Under the pieces are notes generated by a model. The model was given only the letters and a program-made list of their open reading frames with translations, had not been told where the DNA came from and ran no database searches. The translations under genes were made by a program, and so were the position numbers. DNA of 12,761 bases from Candidatus Latescibacterota bacterium (GTDB lineage: Bacteria; Latescibacterota; UBA2968): assembly GCA_038279365.1 (NCBI GenBank), contig JAYODI010000121.1:1-12761 (forward strand), in the 5' to 3' direction. Shown piece after piece: positions 3,139 through 12,557 of the stretch; the stretch's first letter is position 1, and every line of letters starts with the position of its first letter.

Positions 3139-3612
3139 CTACCCCATCCCCTTCACATCCGCCAAAACCTCTTCCGCATGTTCTTTCACCTTCACCTTCT
3201 CATACACCTTCGCAATCTTCCCCTTCGCATCAATCAAAAACGACATCCGATGCGTGCCCATAAACTCCCGCCCCATAAACTTCTTCAAACCCCACACCCC
3301 AAAGAGTTCCACCACCACTTGCTCTTCATCGGCCAACAACGTAAACGGCAACGCATACTTCTTCACAAAGTTCGCATGTTTTTTCACCGTATCCGTACTG
3401 ATCCCAAACACCTTCACACCCAACTTCTCAAACTCAGGAAAATGATCCCGAATCGCACACGCCTCCGTCGTACACCCTGGTGTATTATCTCGCGGATAAA
3501 AGTACACCAACACCCATTGCCCCTTATAATCCGACAATGTATGTGACTCTCCATTCTGATCTTGCAACGTAAAATCAGGGGCTTTTTCACCCACCTTCAC
3601 TTTGGGTATCAT
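3139..3612 (-). CDS. bcp: Thioredoxin-dependent peroxiredoxin BCP/PrxQ
   Basis: APDFTL...VYFYPRDNTPGCTTEAC, the PxxxTxxC peroxidatic motif with the resolving Cys five residues later; GISTD; conserved Arg in HRMSFLID. ATG 3612 preferred over GTG 3615 because of AAGGA RBS spacing. Confidence 0.95.
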   Translation of the reverse strand: MIPKVKVGEKAPDFTLQDQNGESHTLSDYKGQWVLVYFYPRDNTPGCTTEACAIRDHFPEFEKLGVKVFGISTDTVKKHANFVKKYALPFTLLADEEQVVVELFGVWGLKKFMGREFMGTHRMSFLIDAKGKIAKVYEKVKVKEHAEEVLADVKGMG

Positions 3613-3680
3613 CACAATCCTTTCAATCTATTAACAAAATTCACCCTTAACACTCACTTTTAAAGTGCACACATTTTTCA

Positions 3681-3965
3681 ATGATCACATATTTAGAATT
3701 CATCCAAGGCGCAAGAAATCGACAAGAATTAAAACATATCAAAGGTTTTCTCAAAGACCATGCATTTCAAACCTTACCACTCAATGAAAATATTGGACAC
3801 AGAGCATCTATATACATGGAGGAATATACACTCAAAACAGCACTTTACCTTGCCGATGCCTTAATAGCAGCAACAGCTGTTGAACAAAACACAACTCTGT
3901 GCACGGCCAATCAAAAACATTACCGTAACATTGGTGAACTCGATCTCAAAATCTTTCGCCCATAG
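3681..3965 (+). pseudogene. vapC: 5'-truncated VapC/PIN-domain toxin remnant with no antitoxin gene
   Basis: ITYLEFIQG, LADALIAATA and LCTANQKHY are PIN motifs, but the N-terminal strand with the first catalytic Asp (xxDT) is missing. There is an in-frame TAA at 3648-3650 and only about 65 nt to the divergent bcp start. More AT-rich than its neighbours. Confidence 0.7.
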
Positions 3966-3976
3966 TTCCAAACTCA

Positions 3977-4876
3977 TTACCCAAACACACCCTTCGCCAC
4001 GCGATGCACTTCCGCGTGCAAATCCGCCGTCTTCTCATCACTTTTGGCATACCCACCCGACAACACCAACGCAACAGGCAAACCTTTTAACCGCATCGTC
4101 TCCAACACATACCGATCACGCGCCGCCAAACCATCACGCGTCAACGCCAATCGCCCAAACCGATCCCCAACCACCGGATCAACCCCCGCCAAATAATACA
4201 CCAAATCGGGTCGTGCTTCATCAATCACATCCATCAAATGACTTTGCAACACATCCAAATACGCCCAATTGTCCACCCCATCGGGCAAAGCCACATCGCG
4301 CGAAGACCGCTCCTTCTTAAACGGATAATTCTTCTCCCCATGCATCGAAAACGTAAACACCGAATCATCCCCTTCAAACACCGCCGCCACCCCATTGCCC
4401 TGATGCACATCCAAATCCACCACCAATACCCGCGCCACATCGCCACCGCGTTGCAACATCCGAATCGCCACCGCCACATCATTCAACACACAAAACCCCT
4501 CCCCATGGTCAGGAAACCCATGATGCATCCCCCCCGCCAAATTGGCCGCCACCCCATCTTGCAAAGCCATTCGTCCCGCCTCAAACGTCCCCTGTGTCGC
4601 CAACCGAGACCGCCTCACAATCGCATCCGTGCGTGGCAACCCCATCCGCCGCTCTGCCAACCGATCCATCGTCCCCAACCGCAAACTATCCAAATATCGC
4701 ACCGTATGCACCAATGCCAAATCATCCCAAGATGTTTCGCTTGGAGTCACCACATCCTGCACCCGAATCAACCCTTCATCCAACAAAATACGATGCAACG
4801 CCACAAACTTCCCCATCGGAAACCGATGTCCCTCAGGCAAAGGTGCTGCATATCCTTCACTAAAACAAACCCGCAC
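3977..4876 (-). CDS. Histone deacetylase-family Zn-dependent amidohydrolase
   Basis: HRFPMGKF, NLAGGMHHG, GFCVLND, VDLDVHQGNG, AGVD and LSGGY motifs; GTG start 3 nt after the upstream stop. Confidence 0.93.
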   Translation of the reverse strand: MRVCFSEGYAAPLPEGHRFPMGKFVALHRILLDEGLIRVQDVVTPSETSWDDLALVHTVRYLDSLRLGTMDRLAERRMGLPRTDAIVRRSRLATQGTFEAGRMALQDGVAANLAGGMHHGFPDHGEGFCVLNDVAVAIRMLQRGGDVARVLVVDLDVHQGNGVAAVFEGDDSVFTFSMHGEKNYPFKKERSSRDVALPDGVDNWAYLDVLQSHLMDVIDEARPDLVYYLAGVDPVVGDRFGRLALTRDGLAARDRYVLETMRLKGLPVALVLSGGYAKSDEKTADLHAEVHRVAKGVFG

Positions 4877-4879
4877 CGC

Positions 4880-5437
4880 CTACCCCTTCCAAATCCGTTC
4901 AATCGTTGGCGTCTCACCCTCAAACGTCAACAACAACACATCCGGGTTCGTCAACGCCTGCCAATGCGTAAACCCAACCGACGCATCATAATGCATCCAC
5001 ATCAACGCCGTCAAATTCCCATGCGACGCCATCACCACCGGCGCATCCTTCTCAAGCGCATCTCCCACCGCCGCAATCGCCCGCCCCATCGCCTCCCGAC
5101 TCGATTCGCCCCCCTCAAAACACAAATCCAAATCTTCAAACGTCTGCCCAAACACCGCCACAGCCCGCTCCGTCTCCACCGCCCAATCCACCCCCAAATC
5201 CCCCACATTGCGCTCACCCAACCGATCATCAATCTCAATCTCCAACCCCAACCGCAATGCCAACGGCACCACCGACTCCCGCGCCCGCACAAACGGACTC
5301 GCCACCACCCGCACAATCCCCTTGTCCTCCAAAAACCCCGCCAACTCCTTCGCCTGCGCCCACCCCAAATCCGTCAACGCCATCTCCGGCGGCTGCCCCA
5401 AAGCCTGACAATGTCGCACCCAATAAATCTGTTTCAT
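4880..5437 (-). CDS. Histidine phosphatase (phosphoglycerate mutase-like) family protein
   Basis: IYWVRHCQA (RHG variant), LTDLGWAQA, SPFVRARES, RLGERNVG, GGES and SHG motifs. Start set at ATG 5437 (GAGGGAG RBS) rather than 5470. Confidence 0.88.
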   Translation of the reverse strand: MKQIYWVRHCQALGQPPEMALTDLGWAQAKELAGFLEDKGIVRVVASPFVRARESVVPLALRLGLEIEIDDRLGERNVGDLGVDWAVETERAVAVFGQTFEDLDLCFEGGESSREAMGRAIAAVGDALEKDAPVVMASHGNLTALMWMHYDASVGFTHWQALTNPDVLLLTFEGETPTIERIWKG

Positions 5438-5494
5438 CTCTCCCTCACCAAATAAGTGATCCGTTCCCACCTACCAAAGCTTGTAACTACCCCC

Positions 5495-5675
5495 GATTTT
5501 CCGCACCATTCCCTCCCACACAATATTTTTTTATGCCACCCACTCTCGTAGGCCCCTTCATCCTTTGTACCCTCAAACGGTATTTGCGGAAAATCAGCCT
5601 CCCCGGCACTTGAGGGGCGGCATTTTTTGCTTACTTTTTTTTGCTGTTGAAAAAAAGTAAGTCGTGCCGAAGGCA
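5495..5675. repeat. Structured intergenic element with nested and adjacent inverted repeats (REP/MITE-like or structured RNA)
   Basis: 11-bp perfect IR GATTTTCCGCA (5495-5505) / TGCGGAAAATC (5585-5595); GCCTCCCC...GGGGCGGC hairpin (5597-5621); 12-bp IR CTTACTTTTTTT (5630-5641) / AAAAAAAGTAAG (5650-5661); TGCC-GAA-GGCA mini-hairpin (5665-5675). Confidence 0.6.
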
Positions 5676-5676
5676 A

Positions 5677-6657
5677 CTACACATGATTTCGCAACATCAA
5701 CTCCACCGGATAAGGCTTCAAATAAACCTGCTCATGCACCCACTCCGGCACCTCATTCCGATTCAAATGATGCTTCAACAACGTAATCGGCACAATCAAC
5801 GGCACCAACCCCGCCCGATACGACTCAAACACCTCCAACAATTCCTCTTTATCTTGCCCCGTCATTTTATCTTTTACAAACCCCATCAAATGCATCAACA
5901 CATTCACATGCTTCCCCCGCGTACTCATCACCTGCAACCCCTCCATCATCAGCTTCCCATACCGCCCAATCATCTCCGCCCAATCAATCGTCTTCCCCAG
6001 TGCCACCAACTGCCCCATCTCCCGATAATGTTTTGGGCTGTGCGCCAAAAGGCTCATCTTCATTCCCGTATGAAACGCCACCAACCCACCTGGCGTCGGG
6101 TTATCCTTCATCATTTCTCGCAACCGATAATATGCAAACACCCGCTCAATAAAATTTTCCCGCAACGGCAAATCATTCAATCGCCCCTCTTCCTCTATGG
6201 GCAACAAAGGAAACCGCTCCGTCAACGCCCGCGCAAAAATGCCCTGTCCATCCCGCGTCGGAATCCCCGTCTTCAAATTATACACCCGCACCCGAAACAA
6301 CCCACAACTCGGCGAATCCTTCTTCAACACATACCCGTGCAAATCCAACGCCTCCAAATCATCCAACCGCGATTTGGCCCACACCTTCATCGCCTCTGTA
6401 TGATCCGTTCCCGACTTGGGCCCCACCAACTGTGGATCATCCACATCTCCTTGCAACCGAATCGACTCACGCGGCGTACTCATTCCCACTTCCACCTCTG
6501 GGCAAACCGACACCCAATCCACATACTCACCCAATGCATGCGTCAAATAAGGCATATGCTTGTGCCCACCATTATAACGCACCTCCTCTCCCAACAAACA
6601 CCCACTCACCCCAAGTCGCAACTTAAATCCCTGTTCAGAAACACGGTTTTGTGCCAT
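5677..6657 (-). CDS. ybgA: YbgA-family DUF523 (TudS-like [4Fe-4S] desulfidase) + DUF1722 protein; RudS-like putative tRNA 4-thiouridine desulfidase
   Basis: All three TudS cluster-ligand Cys motifs are present (GVSGCLLG..VRYNGGH, VCPEVEVG..TPR, LKKDSPSCG). C-terminal DUF1722 motifs FH...K..LLAHS, NVLMHLMGF and YLKPYP. Start overlaps the upstream stop (GTGATG; ATG 6657 or GTG 6660). Confidence 0.9.
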   Translation of the reverse strand: MAQNRVSEQGFKLRLGVSGCLLGEEVRYNGGHKHMPYLTHALGEYVDWVSVCPEVEVGMSTPRESIRLQGDVDDPQLVGPKSGTDHTEAMKVWAKSRLDDLEALDLHGYVLKKDSPSCGLFRVRVYNLKTGIPTRDGQGIFARALTERFPLLPIEEEGRLNDLPLRENFIERVFAYYRLREMMKDNPTPGGLVAFHTGMKMSLLAHSPKHYREMGQLVALGKTIDWAEMIGRYGKLMMEGLQVMSTRGKHVNVLMHLMGFVKDKMTGQDKEELLEVFESYRAGLVPLIVPITLLKHHLNRNEVPEWVHEQVYLKPYPVELMLRNHV

Positions 6658-8150
6658 CACTTGTCCTCGCTTTTAACCGACAATTTTTCTGCCCGCAACA
6701 CAATCTGACGAATCATACCCGAAAAAATCAACGCATGAATAGGATAGAGCACATACCAATACAACAGCCCCCACAAACCCTTGGGCGCAAAAAAGGCCGT
6801 TTGAAAAAGCTGCGCCGTTTCATTCTCCAACGGTTTAATCTCAAATTGTAACCATGCTCGCCCCGGCACCTTCATCTCCGCACGCAAACGCAACACCCGA
6901 CCTGTCTCAACCGCTTCAACCCGCCAAAAATCCAACGCATCCCCCACCCGCACCACATCTGGATCGCGTCGCCCACGTCGCAACCCCACACCTCCCACCG
7001 CACGATCCAACACCCCACGAATCTCCCACGTCCAATTGGCATAAAACCAACCCCGCTTCCCCCCCATCCCCGTCAACACCCGAAAAATAGTTTTCGGACA
7101 CGCCTGCACAACAGACTGCCGGCGCTCCACAATCATCCCCTGATCATTCTTCAAAACAACAGGTGGTTCATCGCCCTTACTGGTCACAAGGGCATCACTC
7201 CACGCCGATTCAATATCGCCCACCTGCAACCGCGTCAAGGCCAGCTTCACCGCCTCGCGACAAGAAATGGGATGAATATTTGGAAACATCTCCCGAGCCA
7301 TATCATCACGCACCACCACCTCATTGCGCAACCCCGCAATCAACGGTCGGCTGATATTGGCAGAAATAGGCGTCACCCAATGCACCCAATACGACGACAA
7401 AGACGGCGTTAAAACCGGCACCGAAATCAACCACCGCCGCAACCCACGCACATCGGCATAGGTCTGCATCATATCACCATACGTCAACACATCTGCCCCA
7501 CCAATTTCGATCACCTTGCCCACACTTTCTGGCACAGACAATGCCGCGACCAAATAATCCAACACATTGCGAATGGCAATCGGTTGTGTACGTGTGGCCA
7601 CCCAACGTGGGCAAATCATAATGGGCAAGCGTTCACTCAAATACCGAATCATTTCAAAAGACAAACTCCCCGACCCCACAATCACCGCCGCACGAAATTC
7701 TGTTACTGCCACACCCTGCTCACCCAACGCACGCCCCGTCTCTTGGCGAGATCTTAAATGCTTTGACAACTCTGCACTTGAGTCACCCAACCCCCCCAAA
7801 TAAATAATGCGCTTCACCCCAGCCTGCTTTGCAGCATCGCCAAATTGACGCGCAGCAAGCAAATCACGGCTGTGAAAATCATCGGCATCACTGCTCATGC
7901 TGTGAATCAAATAATAGGCCACATCAATACCTGCCAAAGCTGGTACCAACGTCTCACTTTTGAGCACATCCCCTTCAACCACATCCACATCATGAAGCCA
8001 AGCACGCCCCTCCAAACGCGTTTTGTCACGCACCATACACCGCACACGATAACCCGCCTCAAGCAAACGAGGCACCAAACGCCCCCCCACATACCCCGTC
8101 ACCCCCGTTACCAAAATATGCGCTTTTTGATTGCTTGAAAAATCCATCAT
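6657..8150 (-). CDS. ybjT: YbjT-like atypical SDR NAD(P)-binding oxidoreductase with C-terminal DUF2867 domain
   Basis: ILVTGVTGYVG Rossmann motif, AYYLIHSM, IYLGGLG, HLRSR, FRAAVIVGSGSLSFE; C-terminal GGKRGW...W.IRG.LD...GDALDFWRV...LRAEMKVPGRAWL. Start uncertain (TTG 8159, ATG 8150 or 8147). Confidence 0.88.
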   Translation of the reverse strand: MMDFSSNQKAHILVTGVTGYVGGRLVPRLLEAGYRVRCMVRDKTRLEGRAWLHDVDVVEGDVLKSETLVPALAGIDVAYYLIHSMSSDADDFHSRDLLAARQFGDAAKQAGVKRIIYLGGLGDSSAELSKHLRSRQETGRALGEQGVAVTEFRAAVIVGSGSLSFEMIRYLSERLPIMICPRWVATRTQPIAIRNVLDYLVAALSVPESVGKVIEIGGADVLTYGDMMQTYADVRGLRRWLISVPVLTPSLSSYWVHWVTPISANISRPLIAGLRNEVVVRDDMAREMFPNIHPISCREAVKLALTRLQVGDIESAWSDALVTSKGDEPPVVLKNDQGMIVERRQSVVQACPKTIFRVLTGMGGKRGWFYANWTWEIRGVLDRAVGGVGLRRGRRDPDVVRVGDALDFWRVEAVETGRVLRLRAEMKVPGRAWLQFEIKPLENETAQLFQTAFFAPKGLWGLLYWYVLYPIHALIFSGMIRQIVLRAEKLSVKSEDK

Positions 8151-8164
8151 ATTATCCAATTCTC

Positions 8165-9181
8165 TTAAATATCAAGTGTGCTCGACTTCACGCGCAAACC
8201 ATTCGAAGCCTCACGCACCATATCCGCTATCATCTTCACCGAAAACTTCACCCCCCACGTTGCCCGAGGTTGCCCAATAGACGACAGCTTGATCAACACA
8301 TTGTCATCGCGAAACACCACAGAAATGCCAAAGTATTGAACCAAATCGCCTTCCTGAACCATCATCGAAACCAATCGATGCCCTTCTTCCAGATGTGCAT
8401 ACACGTCCATCAACTTAACCACCACAGGCACACCCTCATGGGTTTCATGCCAAACCTGGCGCTCAACACCCTTTAAAACCGCGTGACCATCCACTTCACC
8501 TTCCAAAATCACATTTGGCATATCACCCACCTTATCAACTTCAACCGTCCCATTCAAATTGCTGTTTTGTTGCCATTCAAAATAATGAATCGGCACACCC
8601 GATTGTAACGCTTTTTCTTCATACTTGGTTGGCCGACGCCCCGGCACAAAATCAATCCACGTGGTCTCATGCTGAGACCGCAAATCAGATTGTCCTTCCA
8701 AAGCCTCTGCTATCCACGCGGCATAGTCGGCCTGATCGGTTGCAATGGTCACCAAACCATCTCCCGTCAATCGTTCAGCCAATGTGCGCACAAATGGCGC
8801 CTGAATCAATCGCCTATTGTGATGCCGTTCTTTGTGCCAAGGATCAGGAAAATTGATATACACTTCTTTCAACGACTGCGTGTTAAACAAACGATGCATG
8901 GCAAATGACGCATCGGCTTCCAATACACGCACATTTTTAAGCCCTAAAGATTCCACACGTTTAAACATGCGAAGTACAGAAGACCACGCCCGTTCAATGC
9001 CCACAAAATTGCGATCTGGATGGGCCAATGCCAAATCTTCCAAAAACTGACCGTTTCCAAAACCGATTTCCACCACCAAATCACCCGACCGACCAAAAAG
9101 TGTATCCCAATTAATGGGCCAATCCAAACGTTGCCACGGCACCCAATATTGACAAATTGCTTCACTCAACGGTAACGACAT
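8165..9181 (-). CDS. trmB: tRNA (guanine-N7, m7G46)-methyltransferase TrmB with a ~118-aa C-terminal extension
   Basis: VEIGFGNG SAM motif, FVGIE, YINFPDPWHKERHHNRRL, ATDQADYA and TKYEEK are TrmB motifs; an extra domain follows from about residue 221 (MPNVIL...). Confidence 0.93.
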   Translation of the reverse strand: MSLPLSEAICQYWVPWQRLDWPINWDTLFGRSGDLVVEIGFGNGQFLEDLALAHPDRNFVGIERAWSSVLRMFKRVESLGLKNVRVLEADASFAMHRLFNTQSLKEVYINFPDPWHKERHHNRRLIQAPFVRTLAERLTGDGLVTIATDQADYAAWIAEALEGQSDLRSQHETTWIDFVPGRRPTKYEEKALQSGVPIHYFEWQQNSNLNGTVEVDKVGDMPNVILEGEVDGHAVLKGVERQVWHETHEGVPVVVKLMDVYAHLEEGHRLVSMMVQEGDLVQYFGISVVFRDDNVLIKLSSIGQPRATWGVKFSVKMIADMVREASNGLRVKSSTLDI

Positions 9182-9207
9182 CTGACCACTTTCTATTGAT
9201 AAAAACT

Positions 9208-9303
9208 GTCACAAGTCTCAGGTCTGCATGTCTCAAGCCAAAATACATTGGATTATTTTCAGACCTGCGACCTGCAACTTGTGACTTGTGACTTGTGACC
9301 TAT
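9208..9303. repeat. Inverted heptamer tandem arrays (GACYTGY x6 facing about four reverse-complement units)
   Basis: Right arm GACCTGC GACCTGC AACTTGT GACTTGT GACTTGT GACCTAT (9262-9303). Left arm GTCACAA GTCTCAG GTCTGCAT GTCTCAA (9208-9236). GTCACAAGTC/GACTTGTGAC and CAGGTCTG/CAGACCTG are exact complements. Confidence 0.8.
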
Positions 9304-9314
9304 AACGCGCATCT

Positions 9315-9343
9315 AACTTATACAATCACCATCAACCTGTCAA
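9315..9343 (-). promoter_or_regulatory. Putative internal sigma70 promoter for trmB-ybjT-ybgA
   Basis: On the minus strand, perfect TTGACA (9343-9338), 17-nt spacer, TAAGTT (9320-9315), pointing at trmB. Confidence 0.55.
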
Positions 9344-9351
9344 CGCAACCC

Positions 9352-9765
9352 TCACCCCATTTGAAGCATTCCCAAACACAATATGCCACGCGCTGTCCAC
9401 GCAAACGTTCGGATCCAATTTGTTTGCACCAACATACGATGGTGTTCACCATCAAACCTCAAAAGCAATTGATTGTGTCGTGGTACTTGCAACAAAACAG
9501 TCGACAACCAAATCAAGACCAACAAGCCCAAACCCATCCATAAAAAAATCGACGCACCAACAAACAACAACCACACGCCCGTAAATGCCTCCACCAACAT
9601 CCCTGGGCCCACCACCCACGTTGTGCGACGCATGTGATCTGCTTGATACGTTACATAACCTGTCACACCCACCTGTTTCATCAATGGGTAATGTACCATC
9701 TGCACAAACCAAATCACACCCACCATAAACCAAGTGGCCATCACATGAACCCATAATATGCTCAT
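9352..9765 (-). CDS. Uncharacterised small membrane protein (~4 TM), possibly DUF1772/anthrone-oxygenase-like
   Basis: 137 aa with hydrophobic helices and motifs IWFVQMVHYP, VVGPGMLVE, QVPRH and NWIRT; 18 nt downstream of the photolyase stop; G/T-ending codon bias like neighbouring minus-strand genes. Family assignment is tentative. Confidence 0.8.
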   Translation of the reverse strand: MSILWVHVMATWFMVGVIWFVQMVHYPLMKQVGVTGYVTYQADHMRRTTWVVGPGMLVEAFTGVWLLFVGASIFLWMGLGLLVLIWLSTVLLQVPRHNQLLLRFDGEHHRMLVQTNWIRTFAWTARGILCLGMLQMG

Positions 9766-9783
9766 CTTAAAAATCCGCCCAAT

Positions 9784-11136
9784 CTACAGTCGATTCACTT
9801 TCTCAACATATCCATCTGCATCAAATTTGCGCTTCAACCCACTGTCATTCATATACCGCACCATACCAAAAACCGCGCGCTCTTTCCAAGGCCGATCATG
9901 TTTGCCAAAACACCATGCCACCCCCGTAAACGAATTGGCATCGCGCCCATCTAAGGCATACTTATTATTTAAAAACAAAGCCATTTCAAAAGCCTGCTGA
10001 GGCGTCTCACTCCATTCAATAAATTTTTTACCCCAATACATACGCATATAATTATGCATCTTGCCGGTCTTCACCATTTCCATCTGTGCCGCATTCCAAT
10101 ACGGATCATGTGTTTTGGCTGTTTCCCACGTTTCCAAATCATATACATATTCTCGCACATCGTCTTCGTGTTGGGCCAACGTTTTTTTTGCCCACTCTGG
10201 TAATGCGTCATACTGATCATAATAAGGGTTGTGATGCACAAAATTCATACTCAATTCTCGGCGCACCACCAACTCTTCCAAATACGCTTCTGTATCTTCC
10301 GTTTCACCTGCCACATCTTGCATCTGCAACAAAATATCCAACGGTGATACCTGCCCAAAATGCAAATAGAGGCTCATGTGCGACACCCCATTCACATTGG
10401 GGTCATTGCGCCTTGTTGCATACCCATTCAATCGCGATTCTACAAACGATTGCAACATCTTTTGTGCAGCCACCTCTCCCCCCACAAACGTATTCACACG
10501 CCCCACACGCCGATCAATCTTCATCCTTGCCAAAACACCATCCACATCCAACACATCCACCCCTTCAAAATCCATCTTCAACGAAGGCTGCTTCACCTGC
10601 ACATCATCCAACGGCACCCAATAATCTTCCAACACCTTATGAATCTTTGGCCGAATGGTACGCGCCGCATACTCCTCCTTATCCGTCACCACATCCACAG
10701 GCACCACCACATCCGTTTCCACCTGCACCACACCACAAGGCGCATCAGCCACCACACGAGATCGCCACACTTTCTGAATCTTCAAATACCCTCTATCCAT
10801 CACCAACAACGCCGCATCCTTCGCCAAAGACAAGGCCGCCACATCAGGCGATTGATGTTTCAATACAAACCGAATCTTGCGCTTTTTCAACGCAATCGCC
10901 ACATCGCGCAAACCTTCAAGCATAAACGCATAATGCCGTTCATTGGCCTCGGGGAAATCATCCGTCAACCCAAACACCACCACCACAGGCACATTCAGTT
11001 CATTCGCCCGATGTATGGCATACATCAATGCATGGTTATACCGCACCCGTTGCGCCTGTTGCATCCAATACAACACATACTTCCCACCTTCTTGCAAACC
11101 ATCTTTCCTGACTAGAATCCGCTCAGTCTCTATCAT
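9784..11136 (-). CDS. phrB: Class II CPD DNA photolyase
   Basis: Class II signature motifs YVLYWMQQAQR..YNHAL, EYAARTIRPKI, SHMSLYLHFGQVS, EELVVRRELSMNF, THDPYWNAAQ, GKMHNYMRMYWGKKFIEW, LDGRDAN and HDRPWKER..FG.VRYM. ATG 11136 (MIETERI) preferred over TTG 11181. Confidence 0.95.
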   Translation of the reverse strand: MIETERILVRKDGLQEGGKYVLYWMQQAQRVRYNHALMYAIHRANELNVPVVVVFGLTDDFPEANERHYAFMLEGLRDVAIALKKRKIRFVLKHQSPDVAALSLAKDAALLVMDRGYLKIQKVWRSRVVADAPCGVVQVETDVVVPVDVVTDKEEYAARTIRPKIHKVLEDYWVPLDDVQVKQPSLKMDFEGVDVLDVDGVLARMKIDRRVGRVNTFVGGEVAAQKMLQSFVESRLNGYATRRNDPNVNGVSHMSLYLHFGQVSPLDILLQMQDVAGETEDTEAYLEELVVRRELSMNFVHHNPYYDQYDALPEWAKKTLAQHEDDVREYVYDLETWETAKTHDPYWNAAQMEMVKTGKMHNYMRMYWGKKFIEWSETPQQAFEMALFLNNKYALDGRDANSFTGVAWCFGKHDRPWKERAVFGMVRYMNDSGLKRKFDADGYVEKVNRL

Positions 11137-11223
11137 TTCGCCACCCAATCCTATCAAATGAATATGCCATGTTCTACCCAATCAACATACTCAAAAGTTC
11201 TCAACTTGACGACTCCTTATAAC

Positions 11224-11252
11224 AAAAAAAGAGTGTTCTAAAATGAACACTC
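11224..11252 (-). terminator. Intrinsic terminator downstream of the Gfo/Idh/MocA gene
   Basis: Minus strand GAGTGTTC-ATTTTA-GAACACTC followed by T7; separates the oxidoreductase from the photolyase cluster. Confidence 0.75.
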
Positions 11253-11371
11253 CTTTCGCATCTGAAATCAAAACACAGGTGATTGAACCATACGTCGCAC
11301 ACGGCCATTGCAGTCGTCCAAGGCCAAAATGGAGATTTTAAAACAGTTTCTTAAGTTCCAAAACCACTTCC

Positions 11372-12424
11372 TCAATCCAACAAAATATCCAAGGTCTGCT
11401 CCGATGCATCAATCAACGGGTGGTTCACATCTTGAAGTGGCAGTTCTACAATCTGTCTGCTTTGAGCCGACTGATAGGCCGCCATCTTGATTTGCATCAC
11501 AGCAAGCCCATTATGCACACCCGTTATAGGTTCCAAATCCTGCTCAATACAATCAAGCAAATGCTGCACACACGGAACCAACATCCTTTCTGCTGGCGGT
11601 TCAACCGCAACAGACTCACCATTTACCACAATCGATTTACGCGTCACCTGTGCCGAAACCCCATTCCCCGTCACATTGATCGCATCTGCCTCCACACCCA
11701 TTCCTTTTGCCTGAGATCGTCCCAATGTCAGCGTAGCCACCATTTCATCATATTCACACCACAATGTCGCAATATCTTCAGAGCCAAAAGCTTTGTATTC
11801 TTCAAAATAAACATTGTGCATCCGACACAATATGCGGTTTGGCAAACCAAACAACCAATACATATAATCCACAGCATGACTACCCAAATTCATCAACTCA
11901 CCGCCACCATTTTGCCGCATAGGTGTTGGGTAACTCACATAGTCCATCAAATTGCCTTCAAACTGTTTCACACTGTTGTGTGCATAAGCCACCACATGAC
12001 CAAATTCTCCATGATCTATCGCTTTTTTCAACCGCACCATCGCAGGCATAAACCGCAAAGGATAGCCCAACAATACTTTCACATCAGACCCCGAGACCGC
12101 TTTCACAATATCCTGCGCCTCAGTTGCAGTACGCCCCAACGGTTTATCAACCAACACATGTTTGCCATTGGCAACTGCCTTTTGAATTAACGACCGCTTT
12201 AAATAAAAATCCGTGCAAATCGACACAATATCCACATCCGGATTTTCAAGCACAGCGTCATAATCGGTGGCAACATCAACACCATACAGATCTTTTAATG
12301 CACGCCCCTTTTCAACATGGTGCTCTGCCGCTGCAACAATGTCACAATCTGGGTGATTGTGCCACACAGGCCCAAACGTATTTTGATGCGCCCGGTTGCC
12401 AATCAATCCAATGCGATAGGCCAT
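11372..12424 (-). CDS. Gfo/Idh/MocA-family oxidoreductase
   Basis: N-terminal RIGLIG Rossmann strand, DVDIVSICT, GKHVLVDKP (EKP variant), GYPLRF and GGGELMNLGSHAVD; strong AAGGAG RBS. Confidence 0.9.
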   Translation of the reverse strand: MAYRIGLIGNRAHQNTFGPVWHNHPDCDIVAAAEHHVEKGRALKDLYGVDVATDYDAVLENPDVDIVSICTDFYLKRSLIQKAVANGKHVLVDKPLGRTATEAQDIVKAVSGSDVKVLLGYPLRFMPAMVRLKKAIDHGEFGHVVAYAHNSVKQFEGNLMDYVSYPTPMRQNGGGELMNLGSHAVDYMYWLFGLPNRILCRMHNVYFEEYKAFGSEDIATLWCEYDEMVATLTLGRSQAKGMGVEADAINVTGNGVSAQVTRKSIVVNGESVAVEPPAERMLVPCVQHLLDCIEQDLEPITGVHNGLAVMQIKMAAYQSAQSRQIVELPLQDVNHPLIDASEQTLDILLD

Positions 12425-12557
12425 ACCAATTCTCCTTTTACACGGATCCAGCTACAATATTTAGAATCAACATCTGGCTTTATATTTTCACAATATAATA
12501 TACCTCTTGAATACCAAATAGGGTCATATGAGCTAACATTCTATCCGTGATACCACT

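Follow-up and report, generated by a model that had tools for sequence, protein, structure and literature searches.

Our favoured, still tentative, reading of five minus-strand genes (5677-11136) on a Latescibacterota contig is that they form a light- and UV-damage cluster of a known general type with an ordinary trmB in its middle, a placement that would most naturally mean co-expression. The five-gene arrangement exceeds chance, and its genes are found together again in relatives. Throughout, the window is the whole stretch of DNA that was analysed (12,761 nt).

Layout and transcription of the cluster

As the sequence-only reading had it, the five genes (phr class II, 4-TM, trmB, ybjT-like and DUF523+DUF1722) all lie on the minus strand, and each of its gene calls was borne out. 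The features are as follows.

11226-11257, minus strand: hairpin and T-run resembling an intrinsic terminator (13 pairs, loop of 6)
9784-11136, minus strand: class II CPD photolyase gene (phr), 450 aa, ATG at 11136 (Pfam, NCBIfam, PDB)
9352-9765, minus strand: gene for a small membrane protein with four predicted transmembrane segments (4-TM), 137 aa
9182-9351, minus strand: spacer between the 4-TM gene and trmB, with hexamers, a hairpin and a U-run
8165-9181, minus strand: trmB, tRNA (guanine46-N7)-methyltransferase, long form, 338 aa (PF02390, TIGR00091)
6657-8159, minus strand: ybjT-like gene, SDR + DUF2867, start at TTG 8159, ATG 8150 or ATG 8147
5677-6657, minus strand: rudS, tRNA 4-thiouridine desulfidase type, 326 aa, TudS/DUF523 fused to DUF1722
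5471-5676, minus strand: structured intergenic region after rudS, 206 nt, a terminator-like downstream boundary by its predicted fold

Read from the sequence, 18 nt separate phr from the 4-TM ORF and 170 nt the 4-TM ORF from trmB, the gap between trmB and the ybjT-like gene is 5, 14 or 17 nt depending on the start codon chosen, and the ybjT stop and the rudS ATG overlap by one base as TGATG, with GAGGA 6 nt upstream of this ATG; the gap sizes given earlier (18, 170, 5-14 nt, TGATG) match. The upstream boundary is the terminator-like hairpin at 11226-11257, which ends a Gfo/Idh/MocA gene (11372-12424). The region downstream of rudS holds several hairpins, including an A/U-rich one and a GC one followed by UGAUUUUCC, and folds with an MFE of -68.7 kcal/mol (z -2.7). 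No Rfam family matched anywhere in the window, and no light-responsive regulator gene or operator was found in these 12.7 kb (Pfam and NCBIfam scan for genes).

Given the 5-17 nt gap and the one-base overlap, trmB, the ybjT-like gene and rudS are most likely on one transcript, co-transcription being judged here from spacing. The spacer contains promoter-like hexamers (TTGACA-15 nt-TATAAG at 9343-9317), on which a promoter scan made no call, their 15-nt spacing lying outside its 16-18 range. It also contains inverted repeats I2-I4 and a heptamer-repeat hairpin (9208-9299) followed by the U-run AGUUUUUAUC, 26 nt before the trmB ATG, and its fold (MFE -50.2 kcal/mol, z -3.0) was equalled by 0 of 200 shuffles. 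The spacer could act as a terminator or attenuator, as an internal promoter, or as both. Considering the strength of the hairpin and its U-run, the five genes may be two transcription units, with the hairpin terminating phr-4TM transcripts and setting them apart from trmB-ybjT-rudS.

The encoded proteins

The photolyase has the Pfam domains DNA_photolyase and FAD_binding_7 and scores 535 bits against NCBIfam TIGR00591 ('phr2'), whose cut-off is 550. Its assignment to class II rather than class I agrees with the sequence-only reading: the closest solved relatives, 8oet and 2xry, align at E ~1e-111 over residues 4-448, nearly the full length, whereas the E. coli class I photolyase 1dnp reaches just 2e-06. 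An identical 450-aa protein is present in the protein collection. The 4-TM ORF matched no Pfam or NCBIfam family; in the Atlas it falls in unnamed clusters of proteins of ~140 aa, in one of which 11% of the members carry Anthrone_oxy/DUF1772. Short contigs from close relatives carry its gene together with phr and trmB, and one 1154-bp contig of an NCBI Latescibacterota MAG encodes both the 4-TM protein and TrmB, under consecutive accessions.

The last gene of the cluster is, judged by its residues, a full RudS-type fusion with every residue proven essential in RudS. Its product scores 137 bits for 2-thiour_desulf and 128 bits for DUF1722, is 41.6% identical to phage 1H12 RudS_vir, the assayed protein of PMC11417400, over 95% of its own length, and has all of C20, C52, C118, E54, R63, S115 and S117 of the mutagenesis table of that paper. 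The earlier assignment to RudS thus holds, and so does the pairing of ybgA with phr in E. coli that had been invoked beside it; the equation of the gene with ybgA does not, since ybgA of E. coli, a gene overlapping phr, encodes a DUF1722 domain alone (169 aa), and its product, unlike RudS here, lacks the catalytic TudS domain and, according to the text of PMC11417400, has no effect on s4U.

The YbjT-like protein combines an N-terminal atypical-SDR/NmrA-like NAD(P)-binding domain with a C-terminal DUF2867 (Pfam NAD_binding_10, NmrA and DUF2867, 112 bits), and its PDB matches are confined to the SDR part. The 496-aa form (ATG 8147) is present in the protein collection, and members of its cluster are labelled 'YbjT (DUF2867 family)' by JGI. 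E. coli YbjT has the same two-domain architecture, with E. coli-type homologues 33-35% identical over 96% of the length; the protein here groups with 40-50% identical homologues that adjoin photolyase genes.

TrmB, by its sequence, is an ordinary canonical long form, common to Gemmatimonadota, Chloroflexota and Thermus, with no sign of a specialised paralogue. It scores 156 bits against both PF02390 and the equivalog TIGR00091 (cut-off 113), and counterparts of E. coli D144, H151, R154, R155, T179, D180, T217 and E220 are all present, the reference being the E. coli TrmB residues tested by mutagenesis in PMC10130221. The predicted model (pLDDT 90.3) has E. coli TrmB 3dxz as its top fold match (TM 0.90 on target). 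In the fold search, alignments to the top TrmB/METTL1 entries span no more than ~225 columns, the methyltransferase core, and the C-terminal domain (~130 aa, conserved in 44 sequences) matched no solved counterpart. The core and the catalytic residues are shared with the long forms of Thermus thermophilus and Aquifex aeolicus, which have a 'long C-terminal region' (PMC6313347), and a Thermus sp. TrmB aligns with the extra domain too, through residue 318. Unlike those of Thermus and Aquifex, the protein here belongs to an uncultured Latescibacterota host without a stated high-temperature link, and its gene is set in a photolyase cluster.

It is highly improbable that the genome has a housekeeping trmB elsewhere and that the one here is an additional copy devoted to the light response, an idea that springs solely from its unusual location and for which no supporting evidence was found. 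Outside the lineage, the nearest TrmBs come from MAGs labelled Gemmatimonadota or Chloroflexota and are of the single-form long type, the C-terminal domain is shared with Thermus, the catalytic residues are ordinary and, as weak evidence, no genome gave two loci among the 80 trmB loci listed in the survey described below.

Linkage of trmB in relatives and other bacteria

Linkage was scored from contigs of exactly equal size among the best 120 TrmB, the best 120 RudS and the photolyase matches. TrmB and RudS shared 8 such contigs, against ~0.8 by chance (best 120 of each), and TrmB and photolyase shared 5, against ~0.6 (among the matches listed), the pairs being concentrated among the closest relatives. 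Named by their length in bp, TrmB contigs with a phr match are 15595, 10065 and 8834, those with a rudS match 3749, 7568 and 14506, and those with both 18728 and 417388; further ones, from cluster members, are 18584 (all three), 6250, 17755 and 107608. Beside TrmB and RudS, the 3749-bp contig has space for exactly one ybjT-sized gene. The 2433-bp contig, from a lineage with 58% TrmB identity, has none, which implies that trmB directly adjoins rudS there. TrmB contigs 15595, 10065 and 27262 have no RudS partner among the matches listed, and in one NCBI MAG TrmB and RudS of the 18728 type lie on separate contigs (17397 and 3339 bp), a split that may be an assembly break.

The sequence-only reading had staked itself on linkage in relatives, and trmB does stay with rudS, often with phr, in relatives whose TrmB identity ranges from 92% to 54%. 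The most distant case is a complete Latescibacterota chromosome (L001; TrmB 54%), where rudS (74% identity) lies 2 kb downstream of trmB and the other 9 genes of the window are all missing from the 21-kb locus. An opposite-strand MBL-fold gene stands between the two, and trmB-rudS co-transcription is therefore not conserved. In L001 no photolyase was found within 10 kb to either side.

One could imagine a constitutive tRNA-maturation operon, trmB-(ybjT)-rudS, that sets steady-state s4U and m7G with the photolyase as an accidental neighbour. In its favour, trmB-rudS reaches 54-59% TrmB identity (L001 and contigs 7568, 2433, 14506 and 17755) while detected phr linkage ends at 61%, L001 lacks a nearby photolyase, and the spacer hairpin divides phr-4TM from trmB. 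However, the photolyase matches listed are saturated, ending at 57-60% identity, so that remoter partners could not appear; phr accompanies trmB on the 5 matched contigs plus 18584; and RudS and YbjT-like genes are each photolyase-linked in unrelated phyla. We regard such an operon as unlikely.

A spread of the trmB linkage to other lineages was not found. In an arbitrary sample of 80 trmB loci across bacteria (1.22 Mb; tblastn E <= 0.05), rudS was near trmB in one of the loci listed, that of L001, and a ybjT-like, 4-TM or class II photolyase gene in none. The trmB linkage is real, yet limited to one lineage. Three other phyla have YbjT-like homologues (40-50% identity) next to a photolyase gene or in its vicinity. 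In Streptomyces sp. NBC_00184 the homologue directly precedes a photolyase gene, in Chondrinema litorale it lies upstream of a pair of photolyase-family genes, and on T. thermophilus pTT27 it is beside carH/ldrP, 6 kb from phr. The light clusters of all three lack trmB.

The pTT27 carotenoid/photolyase cluster, built around carH (litR) and ldrP, is reportedly light-inducible, according to Takano and co-workers. It holds a YbjT-like SDR+DUF2867 protein (49% identity), a photolyase and RudS (37% identity; 16 kb from the YbjT-like gene, after a TspO gene) within ~19 kb. Unlike those of the cluster here, these genes lack operon-like packing and are interspersed with carotenoid, uvsE and regulator genes, and the photolyase is of the kind of the E. 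coli class I enzyme, with which it shares 35% identity. A Thermus chromosomal trmB locus has none of the cluster's genes.

The association of RudS with photolyase, also part of the sequence-only reading, is already published: RudS occurs with photolyase in light-responsive operons, of which Pseudomonas PhrB-LitR-RudS and E. coli ybgA-phr are the known type (Jamontas et al. 2024, text of PMC11417400). The likeness lies in a TudS(DUF523)+DUF1722 fusion clustered with a DNA photolyase. The cluster here differs in its class II photolyase, in having no LitR/CarH-type regulator in the window, as opposed to the Pseudomonas operon, and in the position of rudS, three genes from phr behind trmB and the ybjT-like gene. 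Neither TrmB nor m7G appears in the main text and supplement text of that paper.

It is quite conceivable, somewhat short of an even chance, that trmB is a housekeeping passenger around which the light genes phr-4TM and ybjT-rudS settled by chance in an ancestor, the order being kept by descent without functional meaning for tRNA. The canonical long form above its equivalog cut-off, the single linked locus among the 80 listed outside close relatives, the lack of trmB in the Thermus, Streptomyces and Chondrinema light clusters, the opposite-strand gene in L001 and the silence of the RudS paper (main and supplement text) on TrmB and m7G are all consistent with this. Against it, the trmB/rudS pair persists in at least three arrangements (ybjT between, directly adjacent by size, MBL between) while all its other neighbours changed, the trmB-ybjT-rudS spacing is operon-tight, and the two products would share both their substrate and the corner of it at which they work.

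Proposed working on tRNA

In the co-expression reading, which we tentatively prefer, the class II photolyase would mend cyclobutane pyrimidine dimers in DNA, while RudS, via a [4Fe-4S] cluster, would take sulfur off tRNA s4U8 and thereby rid the tRNA of its near-UV chromophore, which forms crosslinks with C13 and stalls charging. A further member would be the YbjT-like SDR+DUF2867 protein, a recurrent photolyase neighbour. As s4U8 is itself a stabiliser of the tRNA core, TrmB made from the same message would keep G46 methylated, and m7G46 could support the C13-G22-m7G46 triple, which belongs to that same region of the molecule. In V. cholerae, tRNAs without s4U8 are degraded.

The structural link between C13, G22, m7G46 and s4U8 that had been proposed is supported by PMC10969862 and PMC10130221. 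Likewise, the review PMC10969862 and PMC6313347 state that m7G46 stabilises the C13-G22-m7G46 triple and that tRNA stability in T. thermophilus needs m7G46, and the text of PMC11417400 reports that RudS overexpression lowers tRNA-Ser and tRNA-Tyr ~2-fold. These reports are the rationale for a compensatory role of m7G46 upon s4U8 removal, which we infer, as we do light induction of the cluster.

Of the 'tRNA-remodelling system' put forward from the sequence, the gene calls, RudS and the linkage in relatives stand, and no spread to other lineages was seen. Grounded in a lineage-restricted gene order and a biochemical logic, the putative coupling is a reasonable hypothesis. Since the arrangement is kept in relatives and not in other bacteria, it offers a testable lead rather than a proven system: RudS beside photolyase was known before (text of PMC11417400), and trmB amid such a cluster is, in our sample, particular to this lineage.

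A five-gene cluster around trmB

Of the eleven credible genes found in the window, nine are encoded on the minus strand. Five of these nine form a tightly spaced cluster, which the sequence-only reading had proposed as a photolyase cluster coupling a putative tRNA s4U eraser with the m7G46 writer TrmB, and its genes, strand and gaps were recovered as described:

9784-11136, minus strand, class II photolyase gene (phr)
9352-9765, minus strand, four-helix (4-TM) membrane protein of 137 aa, no family
8165-9181, minus strand, trmB
6657-8147/8159, minus strand, YbjT-like gene, NAD(P)-binding SDR domain plus DUF2867
5677-6657, minus strand, DUF523+DUF1722 protein (rudS)

The gap from phr to the 4-TM gene is 18 nt and that from the 4-TM gene to trmB is 170 nt. 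Between trmB and the YbjT-like gene it is 5, 14 or 17 nt, according to the start codon chosen, and the form starting at ATG 8147 is present in the protein collection. The ybjT/rudS junction is a TGATG overlap preceded by GAGGA. The proposed boundaries were likewise located: at 11257-11226 a hairpin resembling a terminator, followed by T residues (a T-run), closes the upstream Gfo/Idh/MocA gene, and the 206 nt 3' of rudS fold into hairpins, one of which is followed by a U-run. Scans for promoters and terminators gave 10 against 7.3 and 8 against 6.1 in shuffled sequence, respectively, no excess. No tRNA genes were found within the window and, given that an Rfam search of the whole window returned no match at E <= 1, the two structured spacers lie outside described RNA families.

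The spacer between the 4-TM gene and trmB contains a long hairpin (9208-9299; MFE -50.2 kcal/mol, z -3.0) built of GTCACAA-type heptamers and followed by AGUUUUUAUC. Its stem forms by pairing of tandem GTCACAA/GTYGCAG heptamers with complementary sequence, and no second copy was found in 5400-11400. Promoter-like hexamers (TTGACA-15 nt-TATAAG) lie directly upstream of this hairpin. The cluster may therefore comprise two transcription units, phr-4TM and trmB-ybjT-rudS, with read-through possible. An operator shared by the upstream regions of phr and trmB was rejected, since only short imperfect repeats (D10 and D17) were detected, each with one copy within coding sequence.

Three further genes follow downstream on the same strand, within 3139-5470, and may extend the cluster into a larger stress island:

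4880-5470, minus strand, histidine-phosphatase-family gene
3977-4876, minus strand, HDAC-like deacetylase gene, 3-nt gap to the preceding gene
3139-3615, minus strand, Bcp/PrxQ thiol peroxidase gene

The window also shows an extreme strand asymmetry (plus strand A.279, C.335, G.158, T.228) that far exceeds ordinary replication skew; in L001, a locus on a complete Latescibacterota chromosome, the skew is only -0.04. GC skew at third codon positions ranges from +0.57 to +0.93 in the nine minus-strand genes and is -0.56 and -0.66 in the two plus-strand genes, with an intergenic value of -0.29; the bias therefore tracks the DNA strand and not gene orientation. Because TAG and TGA are rare in the G-poor plus strand, long shadow ORFs rich in H, P, Q and R (250-400 aa; e.g. 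4238-5455, 5641-6708 and 10086-10925) run opposite the real genes, and these were rejected as genes.

Photolyase, RudS and TrmB

The photolyase matches 8oet/2xry (E about 1e-111, residues 4-448) far better than the class I enzyme 1dnp (2e-06), in agreement with its initial assignment to class II; we take 2xry and 3umv to be class II photolyases. Its score against TIGR00591, 535.3, is slightly below the cut-off of 550.05. None of the 11 window proteins matched the MerR/CarH, LOV or BLUF families, and no adjacent LitR/CarH or other light sensor is encoded within the 12.7-kb window; a regulator could lie outside it.

The last gene of the cluster had been labelled RudS/YbgA, of which the first half stands. 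The protein combines an N-terminal TudS/DUF523 domain (PF04463, residues 17-158, 137 bits) with a C-terminal DUF1722 domain (PF08349, residues 201-318, 128 bits). In RudS_KT, a [4Fe-4S] cluster is held by Cys17, Cys49 and Cys114 (Cys10, Cys43 and Cys104 in TudS), the catalytic residues are E51, S111, S113 and R60, and tRNA is contacted by the triad R24-Y25-N26 (PMC11417400). The window protein has an intact active site: C20, C52 and C118 align with the cluster cysteines of TudS and of RudS_vir from phage 1H12, and E54, S115, S117, R63 and the triad R27-Y28-N29 are kept, with E54, S115, S117, R63 and R27 invariant among 31 relatives. Among assayed relatives, RudS_vir (PMC11417400) is also the nearest, with 41.6% identity to the window protein across 95% of that protein's length. 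The E. coli ybgA product has the DUF1722 domain only (169 aa) and left tRNA s4U unchanged (PMC11417400); its gene overlaps phr, so the adjacency noted for E. coli is correct. Judged by domains and conserved residues, the window gene encodes a RudS-type fusion and not an E. coli-type YbgA.

In 13 of the 31 close relatives (61-66% identity; e.g. P0143, P0154, P0163, P0166, P0173 and P0180 in alignment A3), SPSSG replaces SPSCG, placing a serine at the position of the third Fe-S cysteine. Mutating that cysteine abolished RudS_KT activity (PMC11417400), and these relatives may use another cluster ligand or have another activity.

TrmB passes the equivalog model TIGR00091 (156.3 bits, cut-off 112.65). 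Residues D144, H151, R154, R155, D180, T217 and E220 are essential in the E. coli enzyme, as are T179 and R26 (PMC10130221). The window residues D113, H120, R123 and R124 align with D144, H151, R154 and R155, and T148, D149, T185 and E188 with T179, D180, T217 and E220; R26 falls in an N-terminal segment that has no aligned counterpart. The AlphaFold model (pLDDT 90.3) has a core matching that of E. coli TrmB. An extra ~130 residues constitute a conserved C-terminal domain (residues 205-338; window 8165-8581), confidently modelled as beta-rich plus a helix; across 44 sequences, P222, E277, Q282, G303, P305, T308 and G310 do not vary. A fold search with the TrmB model yielded no solved counterpart of this domain, the top entries (TrmB/METTL1) aligning with the methyltransferase core only. 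The domain aligns with a Thermus sp. TrmB up to residue 318 and is common to Thermus and to MAGs labelled Latescibacterota, Gemmatimonadota or Chloroflexota; Thermus and Aquifex TrmB are known to carry a 'long C-terminal region' (PMC6313347), and the long form accounts for 28 of the 80 trmB loci listed. A specialised second trmB is very improbable: no features of a specialised paralogue were found in the window protein.

Gene linkage in relatives and in other lineages

The nearest named relatives of several of the cluster proteins carry the label Candidatus Latescibacterota or Latescibacteria. A scan of genome contigs gave an arbitrary sample of at least 80 trmB loci (1.22 Mb in total). Among the 80 listed, rudS was detected by tblastn (E <= 0.05) in L001 only, where TrmB has 54% identity. 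The RudS encoded there has 74% identity; its gene is found 2 kb downstream of trmB, and an MBL-fold gene on the opposite strand separates the two. The other nine genes of the window are absent from that locus. The YbjT-like gene, the 4-TM gene and the class II photolyase gene were found in 0 of these 80 loci at the same threshold. One of them, L009, from an uncultured bacterium that is not related, has a photolyase-family ORF of 429 aa (6653-7942) with FAD_binding_7 as its sole domain, two genes upstream of its long-form trmB, a single case that may be due to chance.

For relatives, linkage was deduced from protein matches on contigs of identical size in bp, using the best 120 matches for each protein. 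This gave eight exact matches for TrmB with RudS (about 0.8 expected from near-misses) and five for TrmB with photolyase (about 0.6 expected).

Contigs of relatives on which TrmB is matched, by length, with the photolyase (phr) or RudS (rudS) gene, with identity to the window TrmB
15595 bp, phr, 92%
10065 bp, phr, 80%
417388 bp, phr and rudS, 79%
3749 bp, rudS, 72%
18728 bp, phr and rudS, 68%
8834 bp, phr, 61%
7568 bp, rudS, 59%
14506 bp, rudS, 59%

Cluster members added contigs of 18584 bp (all three genes) and 6250 bp, and of 17755 and 107608 bp in the clade of L001. Among close relatives (at least 90% clusters), the orders phr-4TM-trmB and ybjT-rudS recur on contigs of 3-15 kb, and in one NCBI Latescibacterota MAG the 4-TM protein and TrmB have consecutive accessions on a 1154-bp contig. 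Judging by size, trmB and rudS on the 3749-bp contig leave space between them for a single gene as large as ybjT, and on a 2433-bp contig they leave none. A match on a 2463-bp contig (TrmB 42% identity) is possibly a real linkage. Two matches were dismissed as chance, one on a 1304-bp contig too short for both proteins and one concerning a second RudS (P0181) on a 2433-bp contig. TrmB and RudS are on separate contigs in one NCBI MAG, and no RudS partner was found for three TrmB contigs among the best 120 matches.

On this contig evidence, the trmB-rudS linkage is a stable trait of the window's lineage, where it takes three or more local forms, and phr linkage to trmB is detected down to 61% TrmB identity. 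The sequence-only reading had named absence of the linkage from relatives and other lineages as evidence against itself; the linkage is kept in relatives and was not seen beyond the lineage among the 80 trmB loci listed. That trmB and rudS belong to a constitutive tRNA operon, phr being a bystander, is improbable; the spacer hairpin separating phr-4TM from trmB would suit it, and the recurrence of phr on trmB contigs of relatives argues against it.

The YbjT-like protein has an N-terminal NAD(P)-binding Rossmann domain (NAD_binding_10, residues 19-128) and a C-terminal DUF2867 domain (residues 351-482, 112 bits), and its cluster members carry the JGI name YbjT (DUF2867 family). It has 57 plasmid-borne homologues, and eight loci of homologues, picked to span genera, were inspected.

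Neighbourhoods of YbjT-like homologues
L088, Streptomyces sp. NBC_00184 plasmid, 6746-9717, photolyase gene directly after the YbjT-like gene
L086, Chondrinema litorale plasmid, 8995-13057, FAD-binding protein gene directly after, then a cryptochrome/photolyase-family gene
L084/L085, T. thermophilus pTT27, L084 13998-22955, phr at 6 kb, beside carH and ldrP; RudS gene at 16 kb
L090, Kitasatospora fiedleri, 6908-12533, spore-photoproduct-lyase-family gene at 3 kb
L087, Allomeiothermus silvanus, no photolyase-related neighbour
L089, Kitasatospora sp. NBC_00039, no photolyase-related neighbour
L091, Arthrobacter sp. StoSoilB13, no photolyase-related neighbour
L092, Streptomyces sp. NBC_01237, no photolyase-related neighbour

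Photolyase genes are usually present in one copy per genome, so their occurrence at three of eight loci, in three phyla, goes well beyond what chance would give. No Pfam family matches the 4-TM protein, its atlas look-alikes are unnamed, and its homologues occur on three Deinococcus plasmids; no photolyase was found near the homologue in the two inspected, and the protein is therefore without an independent light link. On pTT27, the RudS gene shares 4 nt with the end of the gene encoding TspO, a tryptophan-rich sensory membrane protein (L085, 2377-4109), and the two are apparently in one operon. As in the window, a small membrane protein, possibly an unrelated one, is paired there with light-response genes.

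The genes flanking trmB thus have independent photolyase ties, and trmB itself sits inside a cluster of light-damage genes. That it is a pure passenger there is a serious possibility, if one we hold at clearly less than an even chance: in its favour, the linkage to rudS was seen in the window's lineage only among the loci listed; against it, the linkage persists within that lineage through several arrangements.

A candidate light-responsive tRNA operon

To our knowledge, no bacterial tRNA 'eraser' had been linked to light stress before RudS. In near-UV, s4U8 crosslinks to C13, and V. cholerae degrades tRNAs without s4U8. RudS lowered s4U and shortened the UVA growth delay, and some tRNAs were about 2-fold lower upon its overexpression (PMC11417400). 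The m7G46 made by TrmB joins the C13-G22 pair (PMC10969862, PMC10130221), and tRNA stability in Thermus requires it (PMC6313347; PMC10969862).

The reading we favour, at just short of even confidence, is that trmB, ybjT and rudS would be read out as one transcript responding to light, and that TrmB made alongside RudS would compensate for the loss of the stabilising s4U8. A fuller version, which we regard as unlikely, has TrmB and RudS act on the tRNA core as writer and eraser under common regulation. Light would then lead to removal of the photoreactive s4U8 while m7G46 is secured, pairing with C13-G22, the very pair to which s4U8 would crosslink, and such tRNAs would still be chargeable and spared degradation. 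To these the YbjT-like SDR+DUF2867 protein, found repeatedly near photolyase genes across four phyla, would add a third component of bacterial light protection that has so far gone unrecognized.

The locus may work in the same way as the RudS-photolyase light clusters already described (PMC11417400) and as the cluster on Thermus pTT27. Unlike these, it stands out in using a class II photolyase, in having no regulator in view within the 12.7-kb window, in carrying trmB and in the operon-like packing of trmB, ybjT-like and rudS. The main and supplement text of PMC11417400 contains no mention of TrmB or m7G. Our literature search found no published link of TrmB with DUF1722, or with photolyase and light induction, and no light-related titles in the DUF2867/YbjT literature (titles only).

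If trmB is a passenger, the locus is another case of the known RudS-photolyase light cluster. The photolyase neighbourhood provides a possible first functional context for the uncharacterized YbjT/DUF2867 family. The trmB-rudS hypothesis is well defined and derives from gene order in an uncultured lineage: an m7G46 writer kept beside an s4U8 eraser raises the question, testable in E. coli, of whether tolerating s4U removal needs m7G46.
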